Counted from the first letter of the stretch, positions 1-51,611 are shown. The stretch: DNA of 64,000 nt from Candidatus Micrarchaeota archaeon (GCA_021158105.1 JAGGVH010000038.1:11387-75386), one strand, 5' to 3'. Notes: generated by a model not told the origin, from the letters alone. Numbers and translations are program-made.

Positions 1-1
1 T

Positions 2-493: not shown

Positions 494-495
494 AC

Positions 496-2306: not shown

Positions 2307-2473
2307 GTGTATATTTATGGTTTAAAGTGTTTATAAATATTGTGGTTGAACGTGGAAAAAATCAAAAGGTTCAAATATTGTTTTGAACTTAATAGAATCA
2401 TGACACTTAAAAAAACAAAAAAAAGATTGAAAACTAAATTCTCAAAAGTATTGCCCTTTTTTTAATACCGGTT

Positions 2474-3075: not shown

Positions 3076-3139
3076 ATTCACCAAAATGCATACATTTTAG
3101 GGGATTAATTAACCAAAATGTGGAAAAGTTTATAAATAT

Positions 3140-4378: not shown

Positions 4379-4557
4379 TATTGAAGCGGAGAAGCTCCTT
4401 GCTCTAAAGAACGAGTATGCTTCATCCGTTCAATAGCTGTTAAATTCGGCTTCGGAATTCATCCAACAACTAAACCAGTTGGTTTTCTGCTGAATTTAAC
4501 ATAAACTGCATTTCCTTTTTTTATCAAAGCGTGTAAAACTCACTTAAAAACTTTTAA

Positions 4558-6353: not shown

Positions 6354-7625
6354 ATGACAAATATAAAGTTTTATTTATTATTTATATTTTCTTTTTTTAT
6401 ACTGATAAACATCTCATCTGCAACCAGTGGGACAACAGTCAACATGTGGTTATACTATGCGATTACAGTCATAATCTCACTACTCCTTGCAGGAATTTAT
6501 TATGCATTGTCACAGGTTGCACAATCTCCACAGGTTGCTGCACAGGCAAAGAACGAGTTCAAATCAGTAATTGGCACAATTATATTAGGAATTATATTGT
6601 ACACTCTAATTTTCGGGACAGATATAACATCTAAAATCATTGGCGGCAGCAGTGATGCAACACTTTGGACTACTGTTCATAACAATGTAGGTTACCAATT
6701 TAACATCTTACAAAAAGGGTTCAGACAATTGCACAGAGGATATTATTTAATAGGCAAGATTGTAGGGTATTCGTACACTGCTACAATTTCATTGCCTTCA
6801 CTTGCAACAAAGTTTGAGTCTGGAATGCCGGGAATAGGATTGAGTACAATCTATGGTCAGTATGGCCAGATTTTCCAAACACTTTCACAAGGCATGCTGT
6901 TCATCATAGGAGAACTTGTCATAATAAAGTTTGCAATATTTGCAGTGCCACTGTTCATATTTCCATTAGGCCTAATCCTCAGATTATTTTCGCCAACACG
7001 AAGATGGGGGTCAACAGTGATTGCATTAGGTATTGGAATGTATTTCATATTACCGTTCAGTGCAGTATTTAACTCGTTGATATACAGGTCATTGGAGGGT
7101 GTTGAACCTGTTGACGGTGCAATTGATGAGATGAATCAGAACATAATGAGCGTTATGCCGATTGATAAACAACCACCGAACAGGTGGCTTATATGTTCAC
7201 CGGTTGTTGTGCCGTTTGCAGCACTCGGTCATTTAGGATTTAGAGCAGCGATAGTATGTGGCCCATTATGTACAATAGAACATGCTGCTGACTTAGGAGC
7301 AGGTTGGTTACCATGTTATATTGGATGCGTTTCTGGGGGAACACCAGAATCTGAATTTTCAGATTTTCTATACTACGTTGCACAACCCGGATATCAATGG
7401 GGATTATCGGGTCCATTAAAGAATTTTATATCAATAAGTGATGCACAGGTTGAACAAATTGGGAAATCAGTGGCGAATGTAATACTTCCAGTCATTTCAT
7501 ACCAATGGATGCTTGCAATGATGTTACCAGTTTTAAATTATATAATAACGATTGGGTTTATACGGTCATTGTCAACCGCTATAGGCGGTGAGGTGTACTT
7601 TTATGGGATTACAAAGATACTTTAA
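6354..7625 (+). CDS. Member A1 of the novel 12-paralog polytopic membrane protein family (N-terminal TM + SPQVAAQAKNE motif; LPxGxxLRxFxxTRxxGG core)
   Basis: N-terminal TM followed by QSPQVAAQAKNEF. Core FPLGLILRLFSPTRRWGSTVIALGIGMYFILPF. C-terminal SLSTAIGGEVYFYGI. An A/T-rich TATA-like element lies about 30 nt upstream. Confidence 0.7.
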   Translation: MTNIKFYLLFIFSFFILINISSATSGTTVNMWLYYAITVIISLLLAGIYYALSQVAQSPQVAAQAKNEFKSVIGTIILGIILYTLIFGTDITSKIIGGSSDATLWTTVHNNVGYQFNILQKGFRQLHRGYYLIGKIVGYSYTATISLPSLATKFESGMPGIGLSTIYGQYGQIFQTLSQGMLFIIGELVIIKFAIFAVPLFIFPLGLILRLFSPTRRWGSTVIALGIGMYFILPFSAVFNSLIYRSLEGVEPVDGAIDEMNQNIMSVMPIDKQPPNRWLICSPVVVPFAALGHLGFRAAIVCGPLCTIEHAADLGAGWLPCYIGCVSGGTPESEFSDFLYYVAQPGYQWGLSGPLKNFISISDAQVEQIGKSVANVILPVISYQWMLAMMLPVLNYIITIGFIRSLSTAIGGEVYFYGITKIL

Positions 7626-8538
7626 GATCACATTACTTGTTGTCATTATGATGATAACAAATACGTTTGCATACAGTTTTAATGATATGAAATCAGACAC
7701 AATTTTATACATGGCGTTTGCAAGCATGCTTTTATTGGTTATACTTACAGGTGCATACATTATCGGAAAAGGATTAAACAATCCGCAACTCGTTGCATGG
7801 GTTAATGTTGAATGGGTGAATATAATCGTTTCAATACTCTTGGGATTGTTTGTTCTTGGGATGTTTTTAGGGATTAATCAGTTTGTTGTTGACAATTATG
7901 GTGATGACATTTACACCACATCATTCAATTATATTGACGGGCTGACTAACGAGGCGTTATCGTTTGCACAGACCGAAACCAAGAGAAGTTTGACTGACCA
8001 GTTTAAGACGACTGCATATGCATTCATCGGCACGCCGATGACTGAATCTGGCGGGTGCGGCAAGTCATACATGGCATATTTTATGGCATCTGCACAGCAC
8101 AGGGACATGGTTGTTGACCTGTTGACAACTGCAGGAATCAGTTTACAACTGCAGAAGTATGTGTTGTACGGTGGGATGTTGGTTGTGATGACGTTTGCCT
8201 TGCCCGTTGGTATAATGTTGCGCATGTTCCCAGGAATACGCAAACTTGGCAATTTCCTGATAGCTGTGGCGTTTGCAGTGGGCATAGTATTCCCGTTAAC
8301 TTATGTAGTCAACAGTGACATGCACAGGAACATATTCAGTTATTCTGGTGGGTCATGCCCTGTAACGACATTGGGAGCTGACGATGAAGTGTTTCCCAAT
8401 GATCCCGCGCATGGGTGTGTACTGTCAAGGATGGCACTGATATTTCCACAGGCGTTCTTTTTCCCGAACATTTCAATGATAATAACCGGTGCATTCGTAG
8501 CAGGACTTATGCAGGCATTGGAGGGGATTAAGGCATGA
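7588..8538 (+). CDS. Family member A2 (likely true start ATG 7603 after GGTGAGGTG)
   Basis: NNPQLVAWVNVEW motif after the first TM. Core LPVGIMLRMFPGIRKLGNFLIAVAFAVGIVFPL. Stop overlaps the next start by 4 nt. Confidence 0.65.
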   Translation: MRCTFMGLQRYFKITLLVVIMMITNTFAYSFNDMKSDTILYMAFASMLLLVILTGAYIIGKGLNNPQLVAWVNVEWVNIIVSILLGLFVLGMFLGINQFVVDNYGDDIYTTSFNYIDGLTNEALSFAQTETKRSLTDQFKTTAYAFIGTPMTESGGCGKSYMAYFMASAQHRDMVVDLLTTAGISLQLQKYVLYGGMLVVMTFALPVGIMLRMFPGIRKLGNFLIAVAFAVGIVFPLTYVVNSDMHRNIFSYSGGSCPVTTLGADDEVFPNDPAHGCVLSRMALIFPQAFFFPNISMIITGAFVAGLMQALEGIKA

Positions 8539-11441
8539 GGAAAAACTGCATGTTAAGTATTATACTTATAATAACACTCTTGACAATGTTAATGCTTGTC
8601 CATACTATGCACGCAACAGGTTATGAAATCTGCGACAATGGTATTGATGATAATGGTAACGGGGAAACTGACGAGTCAGACTGCATACCTGAAAGCATGA
8701 GCGATTATGTTAACAGGATATATTCTGAATGTCAATCAAACTGCTCATTCACTCCAGAATGTGAATACCTTGATATATGTAACTATACCCACAACCATTA
8801 TTGTGCATGGCCCGGTGAAATTGGACAAACATATACAATAACATTCGATGACGGAACTACTACAACTGTCTCAGATTGTGAGAATGATTGTACAGATGGT
8901 CATGATGATGACGGTGACGGGTTGATCGATTGTTCTGACCCGGATTGTATGGGCAGGGAATGTGATTGGTGTGTATTATATGATGATGAGACTCGGATAT
9001 ACTATGATGATGGAGGTATAGGACCTGGACTAGGAGTTGTTTATGCAGACGGTCGTAGAGTAGAAAGTCGGGTAGAAACTAGAATATGTACTGCTCCTGG
9101 CCAACGCAATAATAGTGAAAAAGGACATTGTGATGACAACTTTGATAATGATGGTGATGCATACAATCAACTGTACTACAAAGAAATTGGAACAGGATAT
9201 ATAATGATATATCCTCAATCCGCACCGGTTGACTGTGTAGACTCAGACTGTTATCTTGATCCAATTTGCTGCGGTGATCATGTTTGCAGACCGCACGAGC
9301 AATGCCCTGCAGATTGTGTTAATGAAACATGGTGTCATGATGGTGTTGACAATGACGGTGACCATTTGATTGACTGTGACGACCCTGACTGTAATTCATA
9401 CTTCTTATGCCAAGGGATACACTTTGAATGCCCAACTGGCAACTGCTCAGTTGACATGATTCATGAGATTGAACAGGGCAACCTGTTCCCGTTCAGTCCT
9501 GCGATCAACAGCATGTTAATGGACTGGAAACTTGTATCAGTAATCCTAATCATGTTAGCACTGGTCATCATTGCACTGATTTACATGGCAGGAACAACAT
9601 TCCAAAACCCGCAACTTATTGCGTTTGCAAAACATGAGCTTGGCCAGGTCATTGTGTCAGCAATCTTCTTAGCAATCATAATAGGTGTATTGTTATTATT
9701 AGAAGTTGTATCGTCATACGTCGGCGAACAGGTGTTCGGGTCAGAGTTTGTTTTCACGTCTAACATGAGCAAACATTTTACGATTGCACACATTTATATT
9801 GAGAATGTTAAGGACGTTGGTGTTACAAAGAGCATAGAACTGTTAAAAGAGAATGTTAAGCTTGGCAAACAGATGACACATAGGAAAGGATGGTCTTTGC
9901 AAACATATCCTTATATTTCATATTCCCAAGCACCTGATGCAGGATATAGAATGAAGTATGAAAGGAATAACCAGATCATGCAAGCATACTCTGGCATGAT
10001 TTCAGCATTGAGCGTCCAGGATGCAGTCCTGAGAGGGTTTGCATGGGTGATCGGCCCGTTGCTTATCATGCTTGGAATAATATTCAGGTCATTCTCGTTC
10101 ACGCGTAAGATTGGTGGCATGCTGCTCGCAGCAGGATTAGGTTTATTCTTTGTTTATCCGTTGACATACTCGCTTGCACTGTTTACTCTTGCAACAACAA
10201 TCTATGGCAATTCGCATGCCATGCCACCGCCCACTGACTGCCCAAGCGAATGCTTAATGGAGCTTCCTATTGCATACAACGGGTCAACAAAGTATTACCA
10301 AGAAGACCTGCTCAACCTAACACCGTCTGGCCATTTCTGGAACGACCCTGAAGCAAAAGAGCATATGAAGGATTTAGGATTAAAGTTCTGTGATGATAAC
10401 ATAACTGAAGGCGGATGTTGTCATAATGACATGTGCAATGATACTCAATCGTGCCCGCGGGAATGCAGGAACAAGCCTTTGATGGGCAACCAGTGCGGAT
10501 GCCCATTTGAAGGTTGCGGGAACTGTCCTGATGAATGTAAGATTGTAAGGAACATGAGCGCGTGCACAGACAGACAAACAAGGTTTGTTGAGGACTATTG
10601 CCCTCAAACATTATGCCCTGACGAGTGCAAAAAAGACATAACTGATGCAATAAACGGTAACGAAAGCGGGTGTGGGAATTGCCCGTGGATGTGCAGATGG
10701 CAAGATGATTCTACAACAGGGTGGAACATCTCAACAGACCCAATATGCAAAAATTATGCAAGTGATTGTATAGGGTGTGATGCTAAGTATAAAATGCCAA
10801 ACACAAATGTAATAGAAAAACAATGTGAAGACAACTGTACATGTCCACATTATGACAGGATATTACACGGAGATCACCCATTACCTGGCCACACAAGAAC
10901 AAATTGTGGCAGTTGTCCTGATGACTGCAAGTATGACATGCGTTTTGACCAGTGGCACTTCACATGCGAAGATGCATGCACCTACATTAACGAGACAACT
11001 GATGAAGAAGTAGTGTGTCCTGACGAGTGCAGGTTTGACGAGCAATACATGGCACCTGAATGTTTTGATAATGATTCAATAATCAAAGCATGTGAAAACT
11101 GTCCAAAGTATTGCAAGGTTATGGAAGTTAAACGAACACCGTGCTCAGCATGCATACAATGCAACAATGACTGCACACGAAAACCTGCAGTGCGCACTGA
11201 CTGTGCAGGGTCATGCTTAGCATATGAGGGCGAGTTTACATTAAACCCAGCAGTCCTGGTCAAAGACCTTAGCAAGGTTGCTGCTGACGGCGACCCTGAC
11301 CTGCAGGCAGCAGGGGTATTGATGGTGCCGGCATACATATTACCATTGTTTAATGTTATTTTAACATTAGCATTCATACGAGGGTTCTCCAAATATCTTG
11401 GTGGTGATTATGAAATCCCTGGGATTGAAAAGGTCATCTAA
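8535..11441 (+). CDS. Family member A3 fused to two large Cys-rich ectodomains (968 aa)
   Basis: Signal peptide. N-terminal domain with CxDGxDDDGDGLIDCSDPDC-type Asp/Cys repeats. Then TM + FQNPQLIAFAKHELGQ, core LGIIFRSFSFTRKIGGMLLAAGLGLFFVYPL, a second Cys-rich domain (CPDEC/CGNCP repeats) and a C-terminal TM + FIRGFSKYLGGDYE. Confidence 0.7.
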   Translation: MRKNCMLSIILIITLLTMLMLVHTMHATGYEICDNGIDDNGNGETDESDCIPESMSDYVNRIYSECQSNCSFTPECEYLDICNYTHNHYCAWPGEIGQTYTITFDDGTTTTVSDCENDCTDGHDDDGDGLIDCSDPDCMGRECDWCVLYDDETRIYYDDGGIGPGLGVVYADGRRVESRVETRICTAPGQRNNSEKGHCDDNFDNDGDAYNQLYYKEIGTGYIMIYPQSAPVDCVDSDCYLDPICCGDHVCRPHEQCPADCVNETWCHDGVDNDGDHLIDCDDPDCNSYFLCQGIHFECPTGNCSVDMIHEIEQGNLFPFSPAINSMLMDWKLVSVILIMLALVIIALIYMAGTTFQNPQLIAFAKHELGQVIVSAIFLAIIIGVLLLLEVVSSYVGEQVFGSEFVFTSNMSKHFTIAHIYIENVKDVGVTKSIELLKENVKLGKQMTHRKGWSLQTYPYISYSQAPDAGYRMKYERNNQIMQAYSGMISALSVQDAVLRGFAWVIGPLLIMLGIIFRSFSFTRKIGGMLLAAGLGLFFVYPLTYSLALFTLATTIYGNSHAMPPPTDCPSECLMELPIAYNGSTKYYQEDLLNLTPSGHFWNDPEAKEHMKDLGLKFCDDNITEGGCCHNDMCNDTQSCPRECRNKPLMGNQCGCPFEGCGNCPDECKIVRNMSACTDRQTRFVEDYCPQTLCPDECKKDITDAINGNESGCGNCPWMCRWQDDSTTGWNISTDPICKNYASDCIGCDAKYKMPNTNVIEKQCEDNCTCPHYDRILHGDHPLPGHTRTNCGSCPDDCKYDMRFDQWHFTCEDACTYINETTDEEVVCPDECRFDEQYMAPECFDNDSIIKACENCPKYCKVMEVKRTPCSACIQCNNDCTRKPAVRTDCAGSCLAYEGEFTLNPAVLVKDLSKVAADGDPDLQAAGVLMVPAYILPLFNVILTLAFIRGFSKYLGGDYEIPGIEKVI

Positions 11442-12513
11442 CATTAAACCTATAATAATGTTTATGCTGATTGTGACCAGTGTTAGCTTTGCAAGTTTTT
11501 GGGATTTATTCTTCTTCCCTATAAACAATTGGATGTTAGTGTCAACCATTGCAGTGTTATTATCAGGAGTGCTCTTAGCACTCACATACATGGTCGCACA
11601 ACTTATGAACAACCCTTATATGACAGCAGCAGTCAAGAATGAGCTTGTGCAATGGGCGATAACATCTTTCATTGTCATGGCGTTTGTTATAATACTTCCG
11701 TCCTTGCTGATGATAGTTGCTTCAGGAAGTTTATCTTTTGGACAGGAGTATACTCCACCAACTGGGTTAAGTGGTGAAGAAGTTGGACCGTCAGGTGTAC
11801 TTGTAACATATGTCCAATACGCTGCAGTAAACATAATCAATCAGACAACCGATAACCTCAAAAAATTAGCCAACAGTCTTGACCGTAGGATTCAAGAGGT
11901 CAGTGAACAATCTGCGATGACAGGAATATGCAACTTTTGGCAGGTAGGGTTTTCAATGAGTTTCTGTGGTGCGCTCGGTGCATTGCAAGGCCCGTTGACC
12001 AACGGGTTTAATGTTGTCAACATGGGAATCGCAGAACTTGAAATGTTAAAGGTGCTGGTTGTGATGGGTGGCAACATTGGACTGCTTATCCTGTTCCCTG
12101 CAGGCATAATCCTGCGAACATTTTCAATGACGCGCAAAACTGGCGGGATATTGATTGCATTGGGTTTGGCGCTCGGGATAATCTTACCATTGAGCGTAAT
12201 ATTCTTAAGGTTTACAGTTGACCAATACTATGCACATTACGGTGGGACTAGAATGTATCATGTCCCATATTTTTATGAACATGATGATGACACATGCGAC
12301 GAATTCTCTACAAACTATGACAAACACATGAAGGTTCCCATATATAGATATACTGATGAAGGTTTTCTGCTTAATGTGGCAGAACCGTTCATCTTAGAAT
12401 CTGTAATAATAACACTGGGCTCATTGTTTTTCACATTAACATTCATTACTTCAATGGGTGCACTGTTTGGTATGCCTGTTGACGTATCAGGACTTGTGAG
12501 GTTAGTGCAATGA
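11398..12513 (+). CDS. Family member A4 (likely start ATG 11410 after GGTGGTGA)
   Basis: NNPYMTAAVKNELVQW. Core FPAGIILRTFSMTRKTGGILIALGLALGIILPL. C-terminal LFGMPVDVSGLVRLV. Confidence 0.65.
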   Translation: MVVIMKSLGLKRSSNIKPIIMFMLIVTSVSFASFWDLFFFPINNWMLVSTIAVLLSGVLLALTYMVAQLMNNPYMTAAVKNELVQWAITSFIVMAFVIILPSLLMIVASGSLSFGQEYTPPTGLSGEEVGPSGVLVTYVQYAAVNIINQTTDNLKKLANSLDRRIQEVSEQSAMTGICNFWQVGFSMSFCGALGALQGPLTNGFNVVNMGIAELEMLKVLVVMGGNIGLLILFPAGIILRTFSMTRKTGGILIALGLALGIILPLSVIFLRFTVDQYYAHYGGTRMYHVPYFYEHDDDTCDEFSTNYDKHMKVPIYRYTDEGFLLNVAEPFILESVIITLGSLFFTLTFITSMGALFGMPVDVSGLVRLVQ

Positions 12514-13646
12514 AAAGGGTTATGATATTATTATTGATGATAAACATAACAAATGCAACATTCTGTGAAGTGCCAGAGGCAAACTCATGGCTGTTACCAG
12601 TGTTCATTGCATTATTCATTGGACTTTTGTTGTCAATCATTGGATACTTTGTAAGCTTATTCTTAAACTCTCCAAAAATGGCGGCATGGGCAAAGGTTGA
12701 AGTCAGTCATCTGGGTACTGCAGCGTTTGTTGCAATATTAATATATGGTGTGATGACATTTTCATGTGATAATAATGCAACACTGGTCTTAGGCGCGTCG
12801 TTCTGGCCCACACCATATAACGAATCGATAACTCCTCAAAACTTCTTTAATGCATCAGCAGACTACTTTGACGGAGTAGCAAATACATCTTATAAAGCAA
12901 TAAAAATGATGAGGTATAACTTAGCAGTGGCTTATGTTCGCGCGTCAATCAGCGCGTTCGGTTCACACCCGCACAGTGGTGGAGCATACGGAATAATACA
13001 ATTGTTGGGTGGGCCGTCAACGTCATGGTCAAAGTTCCCTGATGCTTATGTCCAGGTTTCAATGTTTCAGATGGTGCTGCGCACTGCAACTGTTGCATTC
13101 TTTAACATATTGTTCTTGAAAGCAGTGTTTTCATACATATCAACAGGCGTGTTAACAGTAATGCTGCCAGCAGGGATAGTACTCTATGCAATCCCGTTGA
13201 CAAAAAACATTGGTGGTGCACTCATAGCATTAGCAGTCGGCCTGTTTGTGTTCTATCCTGCAATGTTTGCAATATTAGACATTTATTGGCTACCGTATGT
13301 CCAGAGCGAATGGGAGGTTGCTGACGTTCCAACATTAACAGAAGTTACAGGGTTTACATCCCACATTGCACTCAGTGACTTAGTAAGTGCTGACGTGTGG
13401 GACTGGTGCAAACAACCTGAATATATCTACCCAGTAGGCACATATTCAACATGCGACAGCGGTGATACTGGATTTAATAATTGTTATATAAGAATTTATG
13501 ACTTTATGAGTTATACAGGAATATTGACATTGTCAACAGTATTCTTCCCATACCTTGCAATAATCGTGGCGGGCGCATTGACAAGGGAAGTATCAAAAAT
13601 CATGGGGCAGGAGCTTGACATAACACGACTGGCAACCATGTTGTAG
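12510..13646 (+). CDS. Family member A5
   Basis: LNSPKMAAWAKVEVSH. Core LPAGIVLYAIPLTKNIGGALIALAVGLFVFYPA. C-terminal TREVSKIMGQELD. 4-nt overlap with the upstream gene. Confidence 0.65.
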   Translation: MKRVMILLLMINITNATFCEVPEANSWLLPVFIALFIGLLLSIIGYFVSLFLNSPKMAAWAKVEVSHLGTAAFVAILIYGVMTFSCDNNATLVLGASFWPTPYNESITPQNFFNASADYFDGVANTSYKAIKMMRYNLAVAYVRASISAFGSHPHSGGAYGIIQLLGGPSTSWSKFPDAYVQVSMFQMVLRTATVAFFNILFLKAVFSYISTGVLTVMLPAGIVLYAIPLTKNIGGALIALAVGLFVFYPAMFAILDIYWLPYVQSEWEVADVPTLTEVTGFTSHIALSDLVSADVWDWCKQPEYIYPVGTYSTCDSGDTGFNNCYIRIYDFMSYTGILTLSTVFFPYLAIIVAGALTREVSKIMGQELDITRLATML

Positions 13647-13648
13647 AA

Positions 13649-14746
13649 TTGGGTGGTGAGATGAGGAAGGCATTATTGTTTTTGTTTGTGCTCGGAACAG
13701 TACTGTTTGCACAGGTTGACACAGGCGTAGAATTTAACCAGACAGGTAACGTTTCAACAATGTTGGGGATCAATACACCACCCGGCAGCAGTAGTTATGG
13801 GTGGGCATTGTATGCAATCCTATCATTATTCTTTGTCCTCATGCTTGCTGCGATAGTTTATATGTTAGGAAAATCGTTCAATATACCACAGGCAGAAGCA
13901 TGGGCAAAGGTTGAATTATTAAACATCTTTGGCTCGTTCTTGTTGCTCATTATGATATTAGTAATATTGAACGCAATATATTCAGTGTTTATGGGTTCAA
14001 TGCTGCAAGGCAGTGCATACTGTTTAAAAGAGGGGTATGACGGCAATCATACTATGGACTTTGCAATGTGTAAGGTGCAGGCGCAGATTACTACGCTTGA
14101 CAACCTATGGGCACAGGCTAATGAAGCCAACAAACCACAAGAGGTTGAAGCATCAACATGTTATTCATTATGGGGGCTTACATTATGGTGCGGGGATTGG
14201 TACGGTGACCTGAGGCAGAGGATCGAATCTGCACATTATGTCGGCACAAAAGTTTTAGGGTTGCTGATCCCGTTGCACGCAGAATTTGTCTTGATGCGGT
14301 ACATTGCACAGAACATGTTGGCAGTGTTCTTGCCACTGGGAATCGTACTGCGATGTTTTCCGCCAACCCGTGGACCGGCAGGGTTATTGATTGCGATGAG
14401 TATAGGATTATACTTTGTGTTCCCAGCATTAAACTTTGTCCTTGACCCGTCAACCACACAACCACAGATTGACCAGCCAATAACAAATCAAAAGACTGAT
14501 TATGCATGTTTCCAGGGGTTTAAGAATACCATAACACAAATACAGTATGAAACAGACGTTGAACAGTCACAAATAATGACATATTCCTATGAACAGGCGG
14601 CTGACATAATCGCAGATATTACAATAACAGGACTGTTCTATCCGATGGTGGCGTTTGCGGGTGCTGTGATGTTTATTTATGTCACTGCACCGTTCTTCGG
14701 TGGTGAAGTCATGGACTTCTACAGAGTAGTCAGTAAGATGGTATAG
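13649..14746 (+). CDS. Family member A6 (possible start ATG 13661 after GGGTGGTGAG)
   Basis: FNIPQAEAWAKVELLN. Core LPLGIVLRCFPPTRGPAGLLIAMSIGLYFVFPA. C-terminal FFGGEVMDFYRVV. Confidence 0.65.
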   Translation: MGGEMRKALLFLFVLGTVLFAQVDTGVEFNQTGNVSTMLGINTPPGSSSYGWALYAILSLFFVLMLAAIVYMLGKSFNIPQAEAWAKVELLNIFGSFLLLIMILVILNAIYSVFMGSMLQGSAYCLKEGYDGNHTMDFAMCKVQAQITTLDNLWAQANEANKPQEVEASTCYSLWGLTLWCGDWYGDLRQRIESAHYVGTKVLGLLIPLHAEFVLMRYIAQNMLAVFLPLGIVLRCFPPTRGPAGLLIAMSIGLYFVFPALNFVLDPSTTQPQIDQPITNQKTDYACFQGFKNTITQIQYETDVEQSQIMTYSYEQAADIIADITITGLFYPMVAFAGAVMFIYVTAPFFGGEVMDFYRVVSKMV

Positions 14747-14754
14747 GTGGTATC

Positions 14755-23649: not shown

Positions 23650-24450
23650 ATGATTTCAAACAAGATGGTAGTATATGCGCTGTTGCTCATTGCAATAGCT
23701 ACTTTATTGTTATCATTCTACATTGGCGGCGCAATACCTTTCCTGTTCCCGTTGAACCTGATTTTGGTCCTGATAGCGCTTGCACTGTGGAAATTCGGTT
23801 ATCTGTTCACCCCAATATTGGGTGGAGTGATAAGGTCAGACATTCAGATTGGGAAATATGAAATATTGCCAAGCTTAGACGGGATATACCGAAAAGCAAA
23901 CGGGCAATATTATGTTTCAAAATTCTTGACAGCCAACATTTATGAGTCAACAACTGAAAAGACTGAAAGCCAGAAAGGGTTGATGATGGAATATTTTGAA
24001 CGTGCGATAACATCGTTTAAATATCCTGTCAAGATCTCAATGCTTGTTAGAAACATTGACCTTACAAAAAAGCTTGAAGAACTGCGCGCTGAACGTAGCA
24101 GGCTTGAAACACGGAAGGGACACCTAGCAAATGATAACCCACAAAAGAACGCTCCACAGATCTCAATCATTGACAGGAAGATTGCCATGGTTAACAAGGA
24201 ACTTGAAAGACTGACGACTGGCGATAAACCAATGGAAGTTGTATCGCTGATAATGATAACTGCAAAAGGCGCAGGCATTGATGAAGCTAAGATGAAAGCT
24301 GAAGCGCACGCAAAAGAAGTTCAAGCAGTAGTAGGCAACGCATTAGGTGTGGAGGTGTTGCCGTTGAGGGGTAATGAAATGTTGAAAGCGTTTGACTTTC
24401 AATTTTTTATCCCGAGCGACAGTGGAGAGTTTACTGACATGCTTGAATAA
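23650..24450 (+). CDS. VirB3-like small membrane protein (2 N-terminal TM + cytoplasmic domain), immediately upstream of the VirB4-like ATPase
   Basis: Two adjacent hydrophobic helices at aa 7-60, then a charged coiled region. Shine-Dalgarno AGGGGTGA. The position and topology match VirB3/CedA1-type partners of VirB4-family ATPases. Confidence 0.5.
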   Translation: MISNKMVVYALLLIAIATLLLSFYIGGAIPFLFPLNLILVLIALALWKFGYLFTPILGGVIRSDIQIGKYEILPSLDGIYRKANGQYYVSKFLTANIYESTTEKTESQKGLMMEYFERAITSFKYPVKISMLVRNIDLTKKLEELRAERSRLETRKGHLANDNPQKNAPQISIIDRKIAMVNKELERLTTGDKPMEVVSLIMITAKGAGIDEAKMKAEAHAKEVQAVVGNALGVEVLPLRGNEMLKAFDFQFFIPSDSGEFTDMLE

Positions 24451-24483
24451 CCACAAACATTGTAGACAAGACAAGGTGGAAAC

Positions 24484-26016
24484 ATGTATCTCAAACCTAA
24501 TAAGATTATAAGTTCAAAACTTGCAATGAGGCGGATTTGGGTCCATCCCCCTGAACCTCCAAAGAGTTTTCTGCTCAGTGATCCCGCAAAGGGTGTATAT
24601 CTAACAAAAACTAAACTGTTCAATGTCCCATTCTTCTGGGATTTTAGGAAACTTATAAACCCCCACATCGCAGTCGTTGGAGTTACTGGTGCTGGCAAGT
24701 CATACCTAGTAAAAACATTCCTGACCCGTGCAAACCTGACATGGAACACTAATGCAATGATAATTGACTGGGTCGGAGAATACAATGACTGGGTTAAACA
24801 GACCGGCGGTCATACTTTGCATTTTGGCAGGGGCGAATACCTTAATTTATTAGACCTGGCAGGCATGAAACCAATACAAAGAGTTAAACAGATCATCAGC
24901 GCATTAGAGATATTGACGGACATTGGAAAGTATCCTGTCCAGAAAAGGTTTACAGAAGATGCACTGATGAACACATACAAAAATCACGGGTTTGAACTTA
25001 CAAAAAAATCTAATAATAAACCGCCAGTGTTGTCAGATGTTATAAAAGAACTTGAGAAGATTAAAAACAAACAGAAAACTGAAAAGAAAAAGGATGACGT
25101 TCAAGAATGCATCCACAGGTTAAAACCCATGACAATAAAAGGTAATGATTACTTTGCACACCATTCAACCATCAACCTTGACAAGATCATAAAGATGGGG
25201 CTTGTCAACATCGACCTTCACGAACTACCATCAGAAGAGATGAGGAGTTTGGCAGGGCTAACCATCCTCCAGATGTTAAAAGAAAAGATGAGGTTTGAGG
25301 GTTGGTCGCCTGAGAAGGGATTAAAACTGTTCATTGTTGCTGACGAGGCATGGAAGATTGCAAAAGATGACAGGAGCGACCTGATAACCATTGTCAGAGA
25401 AGGAAGGAAGTACCAGTTCGGACTGATCGTGGCCAGTCAAAATCCTACTGACATTCACAAGGATATATTTTCAAACGTTGGCACATTGTTCATAATGAGG
25501 TTAATGTTTAAGGAATTTAAGGAGCATGTGCGGTCATCATTACACTATTCTGATTACATTGCAGAACAGATTGACAAGCTTGGTGTGGGCGAATCGATTG
25601 TATACTTGGGTTATGCACAAAAAACTGATTTTAGCAATGTTGTAATATTAAACAAGATTGATGGTGAAGAGCCTTTAATAAATTATACATTAAAAGGTGA
25701 TAAGATGGAAGTTACATTTATGAAAGAGAAATTTAAAAGACAATTAAAAGAGTTTGGACTGAACACGCAACAGATTAAAAATGTATGTGCAATGTTTGAA
25801 GAGCATGACAATGTAATCCATGTGCTACAACTGATTGAACAGCTTGAGAAGTATGGTTTCGGTCCGTCGTTAATCATAACATTCATGAGGGAATTGGGGC
25901 TAAAAGAAGGTGAACTGATCCCGTTATTCTCAAGATTGCAAAGGAAAAAGATGGGTATAGAGTCTGACAAACTTGTACGGTTGGTGGTTGAAGATGAAGA
26001 AACTAAAGAAAAGTAA
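24484..26016 (+). CDS. VirB4/TrbE/CedB-like (HerA-FtsK superfamily, DUF87) secretion/transfer ATPase
   Basis: Walker A VVGVTGAGKSYLVK. Walker B KLFIVADEAWK. The REGRKYQFGLIVASQNP (R-finger/SQ) region is typical of VirB4/HerA ATPases. Shine-Dalgarno AAGGTGGA. Confidence 0.75.
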   Translation: MYLKPNKIISSKLAMRRIWVHPPEPPKSFLLSDPAKGVYLTKTKLFNVPFFWDFRKLINPHIAVVGVTGAGKSYLVKTFLTRANLTWNTNAMIIDWVGEYNDWVKQTGGHTLHFGRGEYLNLLDLAGMKPIQRVKQIISALEILTDIGKYPVQKRFTEDALMNTYKNHGFELTKKSNNKPPVLSDVIKELEKIKNKQKTEKKKDDVQECIHRLKPMTIKGNDYFAHHSTINLDKIIKMGLVNIDLHELPSEEMRSLAGLTILQMLKEKMRFEGWSPEKGLKLFIVADEAWKIAKDDRSDLITIVREGRKYQFGLIVASQNPTDIHKDIFSNVGTLFIMRLMFKEFKEHVRSSLHYSDYIAEQIDKLGVGESIVYLGYAQKTDFSNVVILNKIDGEEPLINYTLKGDKMEVTFMKEKFKRQLKEFGLNTQQIKNVCAMFEEHDNVIHVLQLIEQLEKYGFGPSLIITFMRELGLKEGELIPLFSRLQRKKMGIESDKLVRLVVEDEETKEK

Positions 26017-45603: not shown

Positions 45604-46761
45604 TTATATCACCTTTGCCAACCCTCTGGCAATCTCAGTAAGGTCAGCACCCAGCAACAATCCTGCTGAACGTATAAACGTATACAGGCCTGTAAGTGCA
45701 ACAACTGGATAAATCAAAGTGCGGTATATCCACACCACAAACATGTTTGTTGTGATATAAGATATAACTGTCTTAAACAATTTAAACAGACTACCATACT
45801 GCCCCATTATTAAAGAAATATCATCCTTGTCTATCCTGCAATCCTCTGTAATCTCAGTCATCAACCTCACAACCTGCTGATACGACCCAGACTTTTCAAT
45901 ATTTTTATAAAATGCATTCAAAAGGTTTGAAGGATAGATGCCTTCCATTATCACAAAAACATAAACATAAATCGTATGGATAACAAACCCTAATCCCAAC
46001 CCAAACGCCACCAACATCGCACCTGCACCCCTGGTGTTTGGAAACATACGCAACACTATACCCAAGGGTAGTAAGAACGATGCAATGCATGGACCGTATA
46101 ACATCAATTCCATAAACAAATATTGTGTAAATATGATTGTATCAATCTTATCCATAATAAACTCTGTAAATGTCAAAAGCGGAAGACCTATTCTTCCTGA
46201 GAAAAATCCTTTGGGCTTACCGCTATTTTTCACTATGGACGTTTCAGATGCAACTTTTATAGGATAATATACAGTATTAAAAACCTTGTACATGTTCGCC
46301 ATAGTATGCACAGTATCCTTTACAAGAAGCACAGAATAACTGTTAACTGAACTGATATTGTATAATTTAGAATATTTAGGATTGTTGGCTTCTGCATTAG
46401 GTATCACAGTCCCTTCAACATAACCAAACACAGTCGCTGAATCGGGCCATGTGCCGACTGTCACGCCCAACCCAGAGTCATGGGCATAATCTTCGATATC
46501 AAAATCCAATTCTTTAATCACAGTGCCACTTTCAATCATGTGTGATATTGTCAGCACTCTCCCGCCAACTGCCAAAATTTCTATGAACGAAATAAGTATT
46601 ATAACTATCAACACTGTTGAAAACACATCGGCTAAGAACCCCTTTGCTTTAAACTCCAACTCAGATGACTTGAAAAACTTTGCCAACAGATACAATAACA
46701 CTGAAACAATCAATCCAGTCATCATAGAAATTACTACCAACAACATCCAATCATTGAACAT
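45604..46761 (-). CDS. Family member B6
   Basis: Core LPLGIVLRMFPNTRGAGAMLVAFGLGLGFV. C-terminal LLLGADLTEIARGL. Confidence 0.65.
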   Translation of the reverse strand: MFNDWMLLVVISMMTGLIVSVLLYLLAKFFKSSELEFKAKGFLADVFSTVLIVIILISFIEILAVGGRVLTISHMIESGTVIKELDFDIEDYAHDSGLGVTVGTWPDSATVFGYVEGTVIPNAEANNPKYSKLYNISSVNSYSVLLVKDTVHTMANMYKVFNTVYYPIKVASETSIVKNSGKPKGFFSGRIGLPLLTFTEFIMDKIDTIIFTQYLFMELMLYGPCIASFLLPLGIVLRMFPNTRGAGAMLVAFGLGLGFVIHTIYVYVFVIMEGIYPSNLLNAFYKNIEKSGSYQQVVRLMTEITEDCRIDKDDISLIMGQYGSLFKLFKTVISYITTNMFVVWIYRTLIYPVVALTGLYTFIRSAGLLLGADLTEIARGLAKVI

Positions 46762-46773
46762 TCATACCACCAT

Positions 46774-47895
46774 CTATATCATCCGGGTGAGGTTTGCAAC
46801 ATTTAAACTTTCGCCTAATATTCCAGAGATTGTTGTGCTGATGCTTGAAAGGATTAAGATATTAAGCACCGGCAGTAACACACCCCCAATGAATAATGAG
46901 CCGATTATCCCAATCAAGAATACTATATAGAAAAATACTGACAATAATATTGAAATCAAAACTGCATAGTGCAAACCCTTGTCCAACTTTATAAGCACAT
47001 CTGCTATTTTCATTACTCTGCCAGTACCAATATGGCCTTGGAGCCAATGTGCAATGGTTGGGTTTTTCATGGCAGACATTGCAATCTTATTACCACTTAG
47101 CGCCATCCATGACAATACAACAGAACCCGATGCAAGAGTTGCAGGGCCAAGATAATTCTCAGGCATGATTGTCTTCATTATCAACCCGTCCAACATCAAC
47201 AATAGAGGATAAAATATTGATAATGTCAAAACTGCCCCGATGATTGCACCGCCGATAGTCCTTGTTGGCGCGAACGACCTGAACAGAAAACCTATTGGTA
47301 AGAACACCCCAACCATCGGAGACCATGAGAAGTAAAGGATAAATATCTGTGTCATGGCAGAAAGCAACATTACGACAATACTCATCGCACCCAGCCCTAT
47401 AAACAAGTCAACAAATGACTTGACACCGCCGAACGGTGAGAGTGAATTAGTTTCAATGTTGACGTTAGTTCCTGCCACACCACCGGCGGTTGAGTATGTT
47501 ATTGTTGTGACAACAAACATGTCAGATGACCATGTCAAGAACTTTTTAAGGTATGCCATTCCAAAATCAAACGGTGAAACACAATCTGATGTGCCGCAAT
47601 AATAACTCTCATAGTTGCCATCTGCACCAGGCAATGAATCCATCATAGGACCTAAATCAAACCCACACATCCCGGAATATAACATTAAGATAACAATGAA
47701 CAAACCGGTTGTGAAAAACATCTGCATGATCTCATGAGACACCCGCGATGAAAGTTTAGAATTATTCATTATCTTTGACAAGAAATAAATAAACGCATAT
47801 ATCGCAGTACTTATAATCAATATTATAAATGTGTATAATGCCCATTGACCAAACGGCGCACCGCCAGAACATACAGTTTCCATTGTCGTAAACAT
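46774..47895 (-). CDS. Family member B5
   Basis: Core LPIGFLFRSFAPTRTIGGAIIGAVLTLSIFYPL. C-terminal ISGILGESLNVANL. Confidence 0.65.
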   Translation of the reverse strand: MFTTMETVCSGGAPFGQWALYTFIILIISTAIYAFIYFLSKIMNNSKLSSRVSHEIMQMFFTTGLFIVILMLYSGMCGFDLGPMMDSLPGADGNYESYYCGTSDCVSPFDFGMAYLKKFLTWSSDMFVVTTITYSTAGGVAGTNVNIETNSLSPFGGVKSFVDLFIGLGAMSIVVMLLSAMTQIFILYFSWSPMVGVFLPIGFLFRSFAPTRTIGGAIIGAVLTLSIFYPLLLMLDGLIMKTIMPENYLGPATLASGSVVLSWMALSGNKIAMSAMKNPTIAHWLQGHIGTGRVMKIADVLIKLDKGLHYAVLISILLSVFFYIVFLIGIIGSLFIGGVLLPVLNILILSSISTTISGILGESLNVANLTRMI

Positions 47896-47909
47896 TCAAT
47901 CACCAAAAA

Positions 47910-49307
47910 TCATATCAAACTTACCAATGACGCAAAAGATATTTCAGACCCTAAGAACCGTGAAATGTCCTTTGCAGCTGTCAATGTCACAGTAATATTA
48001 ACCAAAGGCAGTATTATACTTATAATCAACAGGAATGAGACCATGCGCGACATGAACAGTTCAAGTATATGGGCAAACATACCAATTATAAGGGTTGCAG
48101 ACATGATAGGTAGTATAATCTTTAATATTTTGTTAAGGATGTATGCTGCTCCTGCAACCTCATTCGTTGGGACAGGTGAGCCGCCAGAAAGTATACTCTG
48201 CGCTACCGAACTTGCAAAATTAACCCCTACGATTGCTATTATATCACGTGCGAACGATGCCACAAGATTAAGCAGAAACACAGAAGAATACGGTGGAAGA
48301 ATATTGAGTGCAATACTTTTTTTCGTAAAGAATTGTGAAAGAATTTTTAATATCTTAAACCCAGATGCATTGATTATTGCATTGCCATAGTTGACCATCT
48401 GTTTAAAACTGGCATGGAACCAGTCATTAACTATTAATGCATTCATGTATAACATTGCAGGATAGATAAAATACAATGATAACGATAGTGCTATGATCGC
48501 CCCGCCTGCCTTGCGCGTCACAGAAAAATTGCGCATTATCAACCCAAACGGAAGGAACAATTCAATCAATAATGTTGATATGAACTGTATAAACGATGCC
48601 TTGACAACCCATTCTGCCATACCAAGTGCATATGCCTGTATCAATTTACCAAAATACCCTTCCAAAACCATGTAAAAGTTGTTTATATTCAAATCAAACT
48701 GGACAAACCCAAAAGGGATGGCTGGCAGTTCAAGTGTTGACGCCAAATGAACAACAGACTGCATAATTGCCAATGATACAGTATCTACAAGCATAGAATT
48801 CCGAACTGATAATGTATAATAACACGCTGCCTGTTGCAATGTGCACGGTGAATCCAAACCATGAACAGACTGGATTACTTTGGCAATTTGTGGATTGATA
48901 AGCCCTAATAAAAATACAATAAAAAGTATCAGAAATATGTTTGCAATGATTTGATACAACTCCTTTTTCATCCATGCACTAACTGAAGGGTCATTAAAGA
49001 ACATTCTTCCAAAATAAAATAATACTCCTATCACAACACTCAATACTGCTGCAACTGCGATCGGCAGGAACCATCTGCTGCCGATCCCGGGCTGCTCACC
49101 GGGTCCTATACCCGGCGGGTCACACCCCACATTCCCTGACCAGTCAGTAATATTAGTGAAATTCATTATCATTGAAGATTGGTCTTCAGGTGTGGCACCG
49201 AGAAAGTCTGATATAAAAGAACTATGAACATTCATAATAAACAATAACAAAATGAAAAGCATGCACATTTTCAACATCCTTAATTGTTTCCGTCCCATAC
49301 ATACCAC
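47910..49307 (-). CDS. Family member B4
   Basis: FNDPSVSAWMKKELYQ. Core LPFGLIMRNFSVTRKAGGAIIALSLSLYFIYPA. C-terminal SRFLGSEISFASL. Confidence 0.65.
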   Translation of the reverse strand: MVCMGRKQLRMLKMCMLFILLLFIMNVHSSFISDFLGATPEDQSSMIMNFTNITDWSGNVGCDPPGIGPGEQPGIGSRWFLPIAVAAVLSVVIGVLFYFGRMFFNDPSVSAWMKKELYQIIANIFLILFIVFLLGLINPQIAKVIQSVHGLDSPCTLQQAACYYTLSVRNSMLVDTVSLAIMQSVVHLASTLELPAIPFGFVQFDLNINNFYMVLEGYFGKLIQAYALGMAEWVVKASFIQFISTLLIELFLPFGLIMRNFSVTRKAGGAIIALSLSLYFIYPAMLYMNALIVNDWFHASFKQMVNYGNAIINASGFKILKILSQFFTKKSIALNILPPYSSVFLLNLVASFARDIIAIVGVNFASSVAQSILSGGSPVPTNEVAGAAYILNKILKIILPIMSATLIIGMFAHILELFMSRMVSFLLIISIILPLVNITVTLTAAKDISRFLGSEISFASLVSLI

Positions 49308-49343
49308 ACTACTAATTTATAGCTAACATTTTATATGAAGATA

Positions 49344-50648
49344 TTATAGAAAGTGTGACAACCCAACAATCTTTGATTCGCCTCCCAAGATATATGAAAA
49401 ATACTTAATCGACGCCACCACTGCATACAATGACAATATTGGTGTTACTATTATATACATAGATAATCGCGCTGCCATGTGCTCCCAGCCACCATAATTA
49501 ACCATGAACGCTCCTATGCCTTTAAACATAGCAGCATCAATGAACGTGCGGAGCACAACATACCACATAACATCAATATAAAACTTAAACGTAAGCAATA
49601 CTACAAACCAAAACAAATTAACAACAAAACCTATGACAGTAGTTATTTTATCCCACAACCATTCAAAAACAGTTTCGGCACCAGTATCATTAACACTTTG
49701 TATTGTGTTATCAAACCTTCCAAATATCTGCAATGCACTCTTATAACTATCCAAATTTGTTAGGTCATTATAAAATACCTTACCCTCATCATTGGTTGTG
49801 AGGTATTTGGGATGGTCTGGATAATAAAAAAAGTGATAGTTTATCATATAAAACAACGGACCTATCAAAAACAATGCCAATGCCAATGCTGCAATAAACC
49901 CACCCAATCTTCGTGTTATATAAAAGTTACGCAATACCATGCCCAACACTAAGAACAAAGGAAATATGACTTGTGAAATTAAATCTAAAGCAAAATACTG
50001 TAAAATTACAATGACATATCCAGTCATAAGGATATCAAACAATTCCTGCATCTGTGCAATAAGTATTGTAAACCCTGCACCGGGATAACTTTTCCAACCA
50101 TACTGGTATGTCCCGAGCTGGATGTATGATTCCCTAAAAACCTTATACAAACTACCCTGGTAGAACACATATGATAATGAATCGCCCGCAAGACCCGCAA
50201 TGTCGTGAAGATTGCGCAGTGCTAAACACACATGGACTGGATAATAAACATATTTCTTGCCAGTGTCGCCTGCATATTCCTTTGTAATCAAACATGTATG
50301 ATTGACACTGTTCCATACTGCACCATGGGTCCAACCATCAGAAATATTATTATAAAGAAGAGTGTTTGCAGCATCGGCTTCTGGAAAAAACATTATGACT
50401 GAATTTTCTATCAACCCGTCTGGACCTAACAATATACCCAATGAAAAGAATATCAACCAGAAAAGTAATATGTTCATAAATGCCTGTCCAATCTCCTTTT
50501 TTGCAAACGCCTCCCACTTTGTATGCTTTAAAATGAGAGAAATAAAGTAAACTATAACAGTAATCGCAAGCGAAATGACAGTGCCAATAACCATTAATAA
50601 CGGCACATTGCCCCAATCAAACATATTCCACGGTTCAAACATTACCAC
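49344..50648 (-). CDS. Family member B3
   Basis: KHTKWEAFAKKEIGQ. Core VLGMVLRNFYITRRLGGFIAALALALFLIGPL. C-terminal FSYILGGESKIVGL. Confidence 0.65.
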   Translation of the reverse strand: MVMFEPWNMFDWGNVPLLMVIGTVISLAITVIVYFISLILKHTKWEAFAKKEIGQAFMNILLFWLIFFSLGILLGPDGLIENSVIMFFPEADAANTLLYNNISDGWTHGAVWNSVNHTCLITKEYAGDTGKKYVYYPVHVCLALRNLHDIAGLAGDSLSYVFYQGSLYKVFRESYIQLGTYQYGWKSYPGAGFTILIAQMQELFDILMTGYVIVILQYFALDLISQVIFPLFLVLGMVLRNFYITRRLGGFIAALALALFLIGPLFYMINYHFFYYPDHPKYLTTNDEGKVFYNDLTNLDSYKSALQIFGRFDNTIQSVNDTGAETVFEWLWDKITTVIGFVVNLFWFVVLLTFKFYIDVMWYVVLRTFIDAAMFKGIGAFMVNYGGWEHMAARLSMYIIVTPILSLYAVVASIKYFSYILGGESKIVGLSHFL

Positions 50649-50657
50649 ACCTTTTGA

Positions 50658-51611
50658 TTATACAAACGATTCAAACCATTTTGTAAACGCATTGATTGAT
50701 GTTGTTGTGACGATTATTGAAAACGTTGGGATGACAACGCCTTGAAATCCTATTATAGTAAACCATACTAAAACCTTATAAAACATATAAAAATATAAAT
50801 GAAACAACTTGTTAAGCCCGGGAATAAAATTTAATACGAGATACATCAAATCCCCCGGTGTTCCCCAAACATTGACAACTGATAAAATACTGGTATCAGA
50901 TATATCTTTAATTTGGTTATATATCACGCCACTTGAAATGATATTGGTCATTATATAACCATTTAATGCATACATTGATATAAAAATTACGTATGATGAC
51001 AAGCCAAGGGCAACCATAAAACTGCCAGCCCTGCGCGTCAGGTCAAAAAAACGCAATATCAATCCTGACGATATAAGGTATGGATAGAATGACATTATCG
51101 TCATGATAACCAACAACTGGACGTATAAACTGCCAAGGAGTGGCGAGATAAACATTATCATATAATTGATTAACCTGTCATACAACGTAAAATCCAATAT
51201 TGCCCCTGTGATGACTGACCCGACTGCAAAGGATACTATTGACTTCAAACTCTGGACAAGGCCAAGCAGACCTATCAACGTATTCAACAACAAAGGAACC
51301 TGATGAAAGATTAATGATGAAAGATAATTGTACACATAATCCTCAATCACTGGTGGTGATGATGGATTAATCATAAAAGAAATCAATCCCGGCGATACCC
51401 CTCTAACACCCATGAATATCATGATAAACAGCAGTATAAACCCAAACAGTAAAGAATTCATTATCGCAGTATGGAGGCGAACCTTTGCCATTGCGATGAG
51501 CTGAGGATTTTTTGTCATATTGCCCCAGTAATGTTCAATGACTGTATAACTAAGATAAATCATCAGTGCAACCACAAATATTATACTCGCCACCAGCATA
51601 CAACACACCAA
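50658..51611 (-). CDS. Family member B2
   Basis: TKNPQLIAMAKVRLHT. Core SSGLILRFFDLTRRAGSFMVALGLSSYVIF. Confidence 0.6.
   Translation of the reverse strand: MVCCMLVASIIFVVALMIYLSYTVIEHYWGNMTKNPQLIAMAKVRLHTAIMNSLLFGFILLFIMIFMGVRGVSPGLISFMINPSSPPVIEDYVYNYLSSLIFHQVPLLLNTLIGLLGLVQSLKSIVSFAVGSVITGAILDFTLYDRLINYMIMFISPLLGSLYVQLLVIMTIMSFYPYLISSGLILRFFDLTRRAGSFMVALGLSSYVIFISMYALNGYIMTNIISSGVIYNQIKDISDTSILSVVNVWGTPGDLMYLVLNFIPGLNKLFHLYFYMFYKVLVWFTIIGFQGVVIPTFSIIVTTTSINAFTKWFESFV

Follow-up and report, generated by a model that had tools for sequence, protein, structure and literature searches.

A probable membrane machine derived from type IV secretion, with a split CedB-like ATPase, in a Micrarchaeota chromosome

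The means by which DPANN archaea hold on to their hosts and draw material from them are still an open question. We analysed 64,000 nucleotides of chromosomal DNA from such an archaeon, a Candidatus Micrarchaeota (GCA_021158105.1, JAGGVH010000038.1:11387-75386; this whole stretch is called the window). In it, two neighbouring open reading frames (ORFs) on the plus strand, 23650..24450 and 24484..26016, encode a 266-aa protein with two transmembrane (TM) helices, called here the 2-TM protein, and a 510-aa P-loop ATPase. A first-pass annotation had read them as a VirB3- or CedA1-type partner with a VirB4/CedB-clade ATPase, within a chromosomal machine resembling the crenarchaeal Ced system and without a relaxase or coupling protein. 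Which machine do these two genes belong to, and what could it do for the cell? Homology, fold and synteny upheld a Ced-like machine, while the identity of the 2-TM partner had to be changed. We consider it very likely that the two genes encode the halves of a split CedB-like motor in a membrane machine derived from type IV secretion systems (T4SS). The fuller statement, that this machine also acts as a pilus or channel in cell-cell exchange, is in our opinion probable. A conserved gene set of these archaea is now tied to the VirB4, VirB6 and VirB2 machinery of T4SS and Ced.

The ATPase ORF is not a chance reading frame, since its homologues number more than 1,153 and a relative is encoded at no fewer than 445 places in the scanned species-representative genomes. 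Every named homologue came from Candidatus Micrarchaeota. Its Walker A motif (VVGVTGAGKSYLVK, aa 64-77), Walker B motif (LFIVADEAWK, aa 282-291) and REGRKY...ASQNP region (aa 305-321) were read from the translation and agree with the first-pass annotation, as do the ORF coordinates and the two TM helices of the neighbour. Residues G66, G69, G71, K72, S73, D287, E288, R305-Y310, Q319, N320 and P321 are invariant in 24 homologues of 47-77% identity. No hydrophobic helix was found in the protein by a Kyte-Doolittle scan. It passed the Pfam gathering thresholds of DUF87/HerA-central (65.6 bits against 23.2) and AAA_10 (47.4 against 27.5), whereas TrwB_AAD_bind stayed below its cut-off (18.2 against 20.5 bits) and covered the P-loop only.

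Among the NCBIfam models, CedB gave the highest score with the window ATPase (86.5 bits, positions 251-573 of 590), followed by CD1110-type VirB4 (68.7), CedD (67.3), the VirB4 of a Mycoplasma integrative and conjugative element (65.9) and HerA (58). Ranked by best E value, all 24 family members compared showed CedB first, then the monoderm VirB4 models and CedD, and then HerA; the best values over the 24 were 1e-32 for CedB and 2e-28 for monoderm VirB4. This comparison supports the proposed membership in the VirB4/CedB branch of the HerA-FtsK ATPases.

In the 2-TM protein, the Kyte-Doolittle scan placed hydrophobic helices at aa 7-25 and 38-56; the ~200 aa behind them are charged and free of Cys. 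Direct Pfam and NCBIfam scans gave no significant family for it. A word-indexed search found four relatives, and 16 were found after building a profile. When we searched 1.84 billion representative proteins exhaustively with the family profile, 161 proteins were found, most of them of ~240-280 aa. Among these were P0258, which has 603 aa, belongs to a cluster of nine and matched over its aa 10-231 (E 1.2e-6), and P0268, a partial Desulfurococcales protein (E 1e-5). Both are CedB-like: P0258, together with P0292, matches the NCBIfam CedB model over positions 9-587 of 590 (221.7 bits, E 1.8e-65), and P0268 over positions 9-269. The alignment of the 2-TM family with P0258 was confirmed by hhalign (95.7%, E 9e-9; aa 77-248 on aa 71-234), and our local hidden Markov model (HMM), built from 83 loci, scored 48-49 bits on the CedB-like fused protein. 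The ATPase matched the same fused protein with hhalign 99.1%, E 1.5e-18 and 72-77 bits. Both halves thus have counterparts in the fused CedB-like proteins of crenarchaea, and the two Micrarchaeal genes read as one split CedB-like ATPase: by sequence homology, the first ~250 residues of CedB are represented by the 266-aa protein and what follows them by the 510-aa protein. The two genes are separate in the window, and no related locus examined has them fused.

This homology replaces the VirB3/CedA1-type identity first suggested for the 2-TM protein, which we dropped; the CedA1/VirB2-type pilins are other small genes in the relatives. VirB3-VirB4 fusions are known in T4SS (PMC12102498), and by analogy the TM hairpin of the 2-TM protein may still do the job of VirB3. 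Because basic residues follow the second TM helix, the sequence suggests that both termini and the soluble domain lie in the cytoplasm. Structure prediction pointed the same way as homology. The top three Foldseek matches of the AlphaFold2 model (predicted local distance difference test, pLDDT, 73.8) in the PDB were all TrwK/VirB4 of plasmid R388, with probability 0.97-0.89 and E 0.017-0.08; this model and that of a TM paralogue discussed below were built on shallow alignments of 16 and 11 sequences, respectively. Wu et al. 2025 (PMC11868833) reported structural homology of the N-terminal domains of CedB and CedD to parts of that of VirB4. Seven of 30 members of the 2-TM family weakly matched the NCBIfam model VirB4_plasma, and two each matched CedB and CD1110.

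Through P0292 we reached a crenarchaeal Ced locus (L084) with the order CedA1 (87 aa), CedA-like (474 aa) and CedB-like (603 aa). A second ATPase, a 608-aa DUF87 protein, lies 2 kb from its CedA1 gene (L084:2188-4014, minus strand). It is the closest non-Micrarchaeal relative that we found of the window ATPase domain (hhalign 99.8%, 127.7 bits), is only remotely similar to HerA of S. solfataricus (51 bits) and is probably a candidate CedD. By sequence, the ATPase half is at least as near to this second ATPase as to the CedB-like protein. The anchor half resembles CedB only, and hhalign gave no signal between the 2-TM family and the N-terminal part of the second ATPase.

We then compared 80 Micrarchaeota genome loci, of the at least 445 found, and three others, using HMMs built iteratively from the window proteins. 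Adjacency was counted over the 72 loci with at least 900 bp upstream of the ATPase gene. The 2-TM gene stands directly 5' of the ATPase gene on the same strand in 64 of these 72 loci and further upstream in six; it is missing in two. The co-occurrence of the two genes, on which the first-pass annotation had made its interpretation depend, is conserved. A homologue of the 262-aa protein encoded downstream lies 3' of the ATPase gene in 71 of the 72 loci that hold enough DNA. Upstream, a homologue of the polytopic TM proteins that form arrays in the window lies immediately 5' of the 2-TM gene in 22 related loci, and six of them stand in an array, as in the window, in Ca. Fermentimicrarchaeum limneticum (CP058998.1, L081). 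The minimal module, in L002, consists of a pilin-like protein of 81 aa, a TM paralogue, the 2-TM protein, the ATPase and the downstream gene. In the window, 4 nt separate the preceding giant gene from the 2-TM gene and 33 nt the 2-TM gene from the ATPase gene, which overlaps the next gene downstream by 44 nt. GGTG precedes each start, and the packing is operon-like.

The related loci also vary in the two motor genes. Two tandem 2-TM genes (253 aa and 266-280 aa) precede a single ATPase gene in L039, L044, L045, L056, L076 and L081. P0196 (466 aa) and P0257 (366 aa) each combine part of a TM paralogue with part of a 2-TM protein within a single ORF; these may be true fusions or frameshift or assembly artefacts. 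A more distant 2-TM subfamily of ~240 aa (P0218, P0230, P0251, P0240 and others) was found at E 1e-13 to 1e-4, with at least one member annotated as Micrarchaeia. About 20 loci carry a free-standing gene of ~98 aa right after the ATPase gene (for example L022:11602-11898, L081:11534-11833 and L047:11531-11827), which is homologous to the C-terminal extension of the ATPase itself (HMM positions 416-512, 103-118 bits), so that this extension exists both fused and free-standing. In two cases a single genome encodes two ATPase subtypes, one of ~478 aa and one of ~523-530 aa (L014 and L052 of JAKQHW01; L055 and L072 of JBBITJ01). Each subtype has its own 2-TM and downstream gene, which means that some Micrarchaeota possess two complete modules.

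The polytopic TM paralogues would be the platform of such a machine. Direct scans with Pfam and NCBIfam gave no significant family for them, and NCBIfam CedA was matched by two of 31 members, weakly (E 0.15). The AlphaFold2 model of one paralogue had a pLDDT of 63 overall and of 70-89 in the helices, and its best PDB matches by Foldseek were TrwI/VirB6 chains of the R388 stalk, 8rtd_L and 8rt9_F (probability 0.94, E 0.17-0.24) and 7o3v_J. We rejected an assignment of these chains to TrwJ/VirB5, since their 260-272 residues are too long for a protein of 226 aa and TrwI is present in those entries. The paralogue profile aligned with the CedA-like protein of L084 in the most conserved TM3-TM4 motif (hhalign 47%, E 2e-4, 40 columns), and the same protein was weakly collinear with the local paralogue HMM in three segments. 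On 8,949 ORFs, the sole matches of the paralogue HMM outside the family were the pilin-like proteins of the relatives (to E 9e-5) and then three CedA-like proteins (E 0.6-1); Beltran et al. described this kind of kinship for CedA with CedA1 and for VirB6 with VirB2. In a profile-profile comparison the match between the paralogue and pilin families was weak (12%). A metagenome scan for CedA relatives gave only two near-identical loci. These signals are each weak and mutually consistent, and the paralogues are probably VirB6/CedA-like. Their outer loops are hypervariable.

Pilins were found in the relatives. Beside the module, many related loci encode proteins of 80-140 aa that have two hydrophobic helices and, in some cases, a signal peptide. 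Of 18 such proteins, 15 matched Pfam T4SS_pilin (best E 7.6e-7) and 12 matched TrbC/VirB2 (best E 2.6e-6), and an HMM built from the Micrarchaeal pilins matched the R388 pilin TrwL (E 9.5e-6). In the loci L009-L011 three VirB2-like pilin genes stand in tandem.

Several results weigh against this interpretation, and those on the ATPase bear on whether it could instead be a HerA-type helicase in DNA repair or anti-phage defence, with the neighbouring membrane proteins unrelated to it. By sequence, the ATPase domain by itself cannot tell CedB/VirB4 from HerA. All NCBIfam scores lie far under the equivalog cut-offs (86.5 against 700 for the window ATPase, NF041017), the PADLOC defence models of HerA score 87.5 bits (a partial match, aa 236-373) against 86.5 for CedB, and mad8 scores 81 bits. 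Sequence searches of the PDB rank HerA chains over Thermoanaerobacter VirB4 (4ag5), the Pfam domain is named 'HerA central', and one source annotates a homologue as HerA. Wu et al. 2025 (PMC11868833) note that CedB and CedD themselves used to be placed in the HerA clade, so that such ambiguity is expected, and the fused crenarchaeal CedB-like proteins likewise stay under the CedB cut-off with only 221.7 bits. The CedB and VirB4 models align to the ATPase as one continuous stretch, aa 35-373, whereas HerA matches mainly the C-terminal half. The HAS-barrel or another N-terminal domain is absent from the ATPase, whose conserved core begins at ~aa 35. Neither the window nor the L001 and L002 gene tables showed NurA, Mre11, Rad50, Sir2 or any other partner from defence systems; a NurA neighbour was the finding that the first-pass annotation had named as speaking for a repair helicase. 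Both conserved partners and one TM paralogue are without a PADLOC match. Finally, the obligate upstream neighbour of the ATPase is a membrane protein homologous to the N-terminal domain of CedB. We therefore rejected the repair and defence readings, which in our estimate have only a very small chance of being correct.

The remaining difficulties concern the other parts of the split CedB-like machine. The top TrwK match of the 2-TM model has a TM-score of 0.31, with the aligned part of TrwK not reported by Foldseek, and hhalign gave no signal between the Micrarchaeal 2-TM profile and the single R388 TrwK sequence, or between the paralogue profile and the single R388 TrwI sequence. The statistics of the VirB6/CedA assignment are weak (Foldseek E 0.17, TM-score 0.38-0.45, pLDDT 63, hhalign 47%). 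An HMM search of the 64-kb window found no free-standing pilin gene. The winged helix of the downstream protein has its best PDB match in the winged helix of CdvB (ESCRT-III; 2xvc, E 6e-5), which hints at a protein-binding rather than a DNA-binding role. Purine synthesis genes adjoin the module in some Micrarchaeota, so that a simple rationale of nucleotide scavenging is not general. Cargo and direction, moreover, are drawn purely by analogy.

Do these genes serve the cell or an integrated conjugative or mobile element that encodes its own transfer? Pfam and NCBIfam scans of window ORFs of at least 100 aa found no relaxase, VirD4/TraG-type coupling ATPase or integrase, as the first-pass annotation had also noticed; many ORFs are without a family match, so this absence is not absolute. 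Families VirB11 and VirB7-10 gave no match in the window, and the 64 kb contain no tRNA gene. Archaeal conjugative plasmids without recognisable relaxases and pilins exist (PMC9905601), which makes missing hallmarks weak evidence; in addition, the distant plasmid relatives of our genes are conjugative VirB4-like genes, and the G+C content at 8-20 kb (0.41-0.44) is somewhat raised over that of the left flank. However, the best plasmid matches are only 21-27% identical, and no replication gene of the kind that an element would carry was identifiable in the window. Every related locus that we examined contains the module, and ATPase identity declines gradually across the relatives from 83% to 43%, which fits vertical descent. 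NCBIfam scanning identified archaeal housekeeping genes in the flanks of the window (archaeal-type pheT, a HemK-like methyltransferase, TrmJ, HMG-CoA reductase, Orc1/Cdc6 and FEN-1). The pheT gene also lies 3' of the module in distant genomes such as L001, where the ATPase is 50% identical; the flanks otherwise vary between genomes and are still housekeeping. Since the module is in every related locus, diverges gradually and has housekeeping surroundings, the results point to a domesticated chromosomal T4SS derivative that is vertically inherited. We rejected the mobile element, for which we also found no att site, and regard it as highly improbable; the earlier argument against a classical conjugative element agrees with this.

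Through the greater part of the first array and of the genes for Cys-rich proteins (8001-20000) the G+C content is 0.41-0.44, against 0.28-0.34 in the left flank (1-6000). This may come from amino-acid composition (Cys, Gly, Pro, Ala) rather than from foreign origin.

How could a domesticated, split CedB-like machine work? The 266-aa protein would hold the motor at the membrane by a TM hairpin whose two ends lie in the cytoplasm, and would provide the VirB4/CedB-like N-terminal domain. The 510-aa protein would provide the ATPase, presumably a hexamer like other members of its clade, and this ring would be tethered to the membrane by the separately encoded half. We infer that the motor docks on a VirB6/CedA-like polytopic platform or channel, for which this genome has twelve copies with variable outer loops, and that a fourth component, the coiled-coil/winged-helix protein, is located in the cytoplasm. 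If the machine works like T4SS and Ced/Ted, hydrolysis of ATP would drive pilin extraction and the assembly of a pilus or stalk where VirB2-type pilins are present, and a macromolecule would pass through the VirB6-like channel, most likely while the cell touches a partner or host. As cargo and direction we favour DNA import, because the nearest characterised relatives, CedB and CedD, import DNA.

The same T4SS-derived hardware could alternatively deliver proteins or effectors, or serve solely as an adhesion or contact pilus toward the host. The absence of a relaxase and a coupling ATPase from the scans, the giant Cys-rich and coiled-coil surface proteins within the cluster, the hypervariable outer loops of the VirB6-like paralogues and the likeness of the winged helix to the protein-binding one of CdvB would all suit such a role. 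Precedents for which such a role has been proposed are the relaxase-less T4SS of Patescibacteria (PMC12102498) and the nanohaloarchaeal VirB4-like ATPases that stand beside giant proteins (PMC10266531). On the other hand, the nearest sequence relatives, Ced and its paralogues, transport DNA (PMC9905601, PMC11868833), and we identified no candidate effector. A relaxase and a type IV coupling protein are missing from Ced and Ted as well, so that their absence here is no argument against DNA as the cargo. We consider delivery or adhesion rather unlikely, though far less so than a repair helicase or a mobile element.

The closest comparison for the split CedB-like machine is Ced itself, the system of Sulfolobales and Desulfurococcales with CedA, CedA1, CedA2 and CedB, plus CedD and CedE, which is induced by DNA damage and imports DNA between cells. 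The crenarchaeal L084 and the Micrarchaeal L002 share the order of a small hairpin pilin, a polytopic protein (CedA-like in L084, probably VirB6/CedA-like in L002) and a membrane-anchored ATPase of the HerA/VirB4 clade, and both halves of the Micrarchaeal motor are homologous in sequence to CedB-like proteins. Both systems are chromosomal and without a relaxase or coupling protein. In contrast to Ced, the Micrarchaeal motor is split over two genes in every locus examined, scores far under the CedB equivalog cut-off and has a conserved coiled-coil/winged-helix partner downstream, while no such component is listed in the Ced papers that we consulted. The probable CedA-like gene is expanded to 12 copies in the window, which also encodes giant accessory proteins. 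The host of the Micrarchaeal system is a DPANN archaeon and not a crenarchaeon. The system shares parts and gene order with Ced, yet is not an equivalog of it.

Ted of Thermoproteales (TedA VirB6-like, TedB VirB4-like, TedC pilin), which we likened by description, is a domesticated archaeal T4SS derivative with homologues of VirB2, VirB6 and VirB4 only (PMC9905601). Many Micrarchaeal pilins have a cleavable-looking leader, as in TedC/VirB2 (PMC9905601), whereas TedB is described as a full VirB4-like protein that is not split. With the inner-membrane complex of R388 (TrwM/VirB3, TrwK/VirB4, TrwI/VirB6, TrwL/VirB2) the module shares its best PDB folds, TrwK and TrwI, and the pilin HMM match to TrwL, and its TM hairpin followed by a probable VirB4-type N-terminal domain mirrors the VirB3-VirB4 fusions (PMC12102498). 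It differs in the lack of hhalign similarity to TrwK and TrwI, in having no match to VirD4, VirB11, relaxase or VirB7-10 in the window, and in its ATPase domain, which is of the HerA-like/CedB kind.

Two systems of other small, host-associated cells are also comparable. The T4SS of Patescibacteria (the candidate phyla radiation, CPR) is phylum-wide, chromosomal, reduced to VirB4, VirB3, VirB6 and VirB2-like parts, mostly relaxase-less and found in ultrasmall host-dependent cells (PMC12102498). It is bacterial, however, with an intact VirB4 of the MPF-FATA clade, a lineage separate from the archaeal Ced-like proteins. By description, Nanohaloarchaeota have a DPANN VirB4-like ATPase beside giant membrane-anchored surface proteins of SPEARE type, with a proposed function in host interaction (PMC10266531). 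In that case the giant protein itself includes the ATPase domain, and the Pfam VirB4 N-terminal domain is part of a second ATPase (PMC10266531), whereas the giants of the window have no such domain and occur in close relatives only.

The literature that we searched contains no description of such a system in Micrarchaeota or DPANN, and papers beyond that search may exist. Our results extend the Ced/Ted type of domesticated conjugation apparatus outside Crenarchaeota. They also offer a natural split of the VirB4/CedB motor into anchor and ATPase, which helps to understand the role of the VirB4 N-terminal domain. The paralogue arrays and the giant proteins are candidates for host specificity. 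More tentatively, and as a possibility that we would not yet bet on, the module may be an ancestral, phylum-wide host-interaction organelle of Micrarchaeota: a T4SS-derived conduit for DNA or other macromolecules from hosts of the Thermoplasmatales type, with the hypervariable, in part Cys-rich, ectodomains of the paralogues and the giants as interchangeable host-recognition tips. If so, it would be the archaeal counterpart of the Patescibacteria T4SS, and Ced-type machines would reach from DNA repair in Crenarchaeota to DPANN symbiosis. Micrarchaeota co-cultures exist, and therefore cryo-electron tomography, proteomics and DNA-transfer tests are feasible.

The features of the window are collected in Table 1.

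Table 1. Features of the module, of the two paralogue arrays and of their surroundings in the window
Feature	Coordinates	Strand	Evidence
N-terminal half of the split motor: TM hairpin and ~200-aa alpha/beta domain with helical hairpin	23650..24450	+	profile search, hhalign, Foldseek, synteny
C-terminal half of the split motor: HerA/VirB4-clade P-loop ATPase domain (aa ~35-380) and ~110-aa helical C-terminal extension (aa ~400-510)	24484..26016	+	Pfam, NCBIfam, hhalign
Conserved downstream partner: N-terminal domain, coiled coil, C-terminal winged helix	25973..26761	+	synteny 71/72
First array, six probable VirB6/CedA-like polytopic paralogues	6354..14746	+	mutual homology; family HMM E 1e-43 to 1e-80
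First-array members	6354-7625, 7588-8538, 8535-11441, 11398-12513, 12510-13646, 13649-14746	+	
1294-aa Cys-rich protein with signal peptide	14755-18639	+	65 Cys, 1 hydrophobic segment; no Pfam match
1689-aa membrane-anchored coiled-coil giant	18576-23645	+	11 Cys, 3 hydrophobic segments; no Pfam match
Orc1/Cdc6	31580-32566		
845-aa Cys-rich protein, second array	35374-37911	-	no Pfam match
1919-aa giant with N-terminal hydrophobic segments, second array	37931-43690	-	no Pfam match
177-aa Cys-rich protein, second array	45070-45603	-	no Pfam match
Second array, six probable VirB6/CedA-like paralogues	45604..52913	-	same family HMM, E 7e-15 to 9e-41
Second-array members	45604-46761, 46774-47895, 47910-49307, 49344-50648, 50658-51611, 51612-52913	-	

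The third member of the first array (8535-11441) carries 72 Cys in large insertions. Between this array and the 2-TM gene lie the 1294-aa and 1689-aa proteins, an arrangement that among the relatives only the closest one, L005, retains; judging by their position, they may be parts of the machine. No homologue of the ATPase, the 2-TM protein or the downstream protein was found beside the second array. Its layout parallels that of the first, with six paralogues, a small Cys-rich protein, the 1919-aa giant and the 845-aa Cys-rich protein, and by their position the 845-, 1919- and 177-aa proteins would be its accessories. The two arrays converge at ~34 kb, where the sign of the GC skew switches together with gene orientation.

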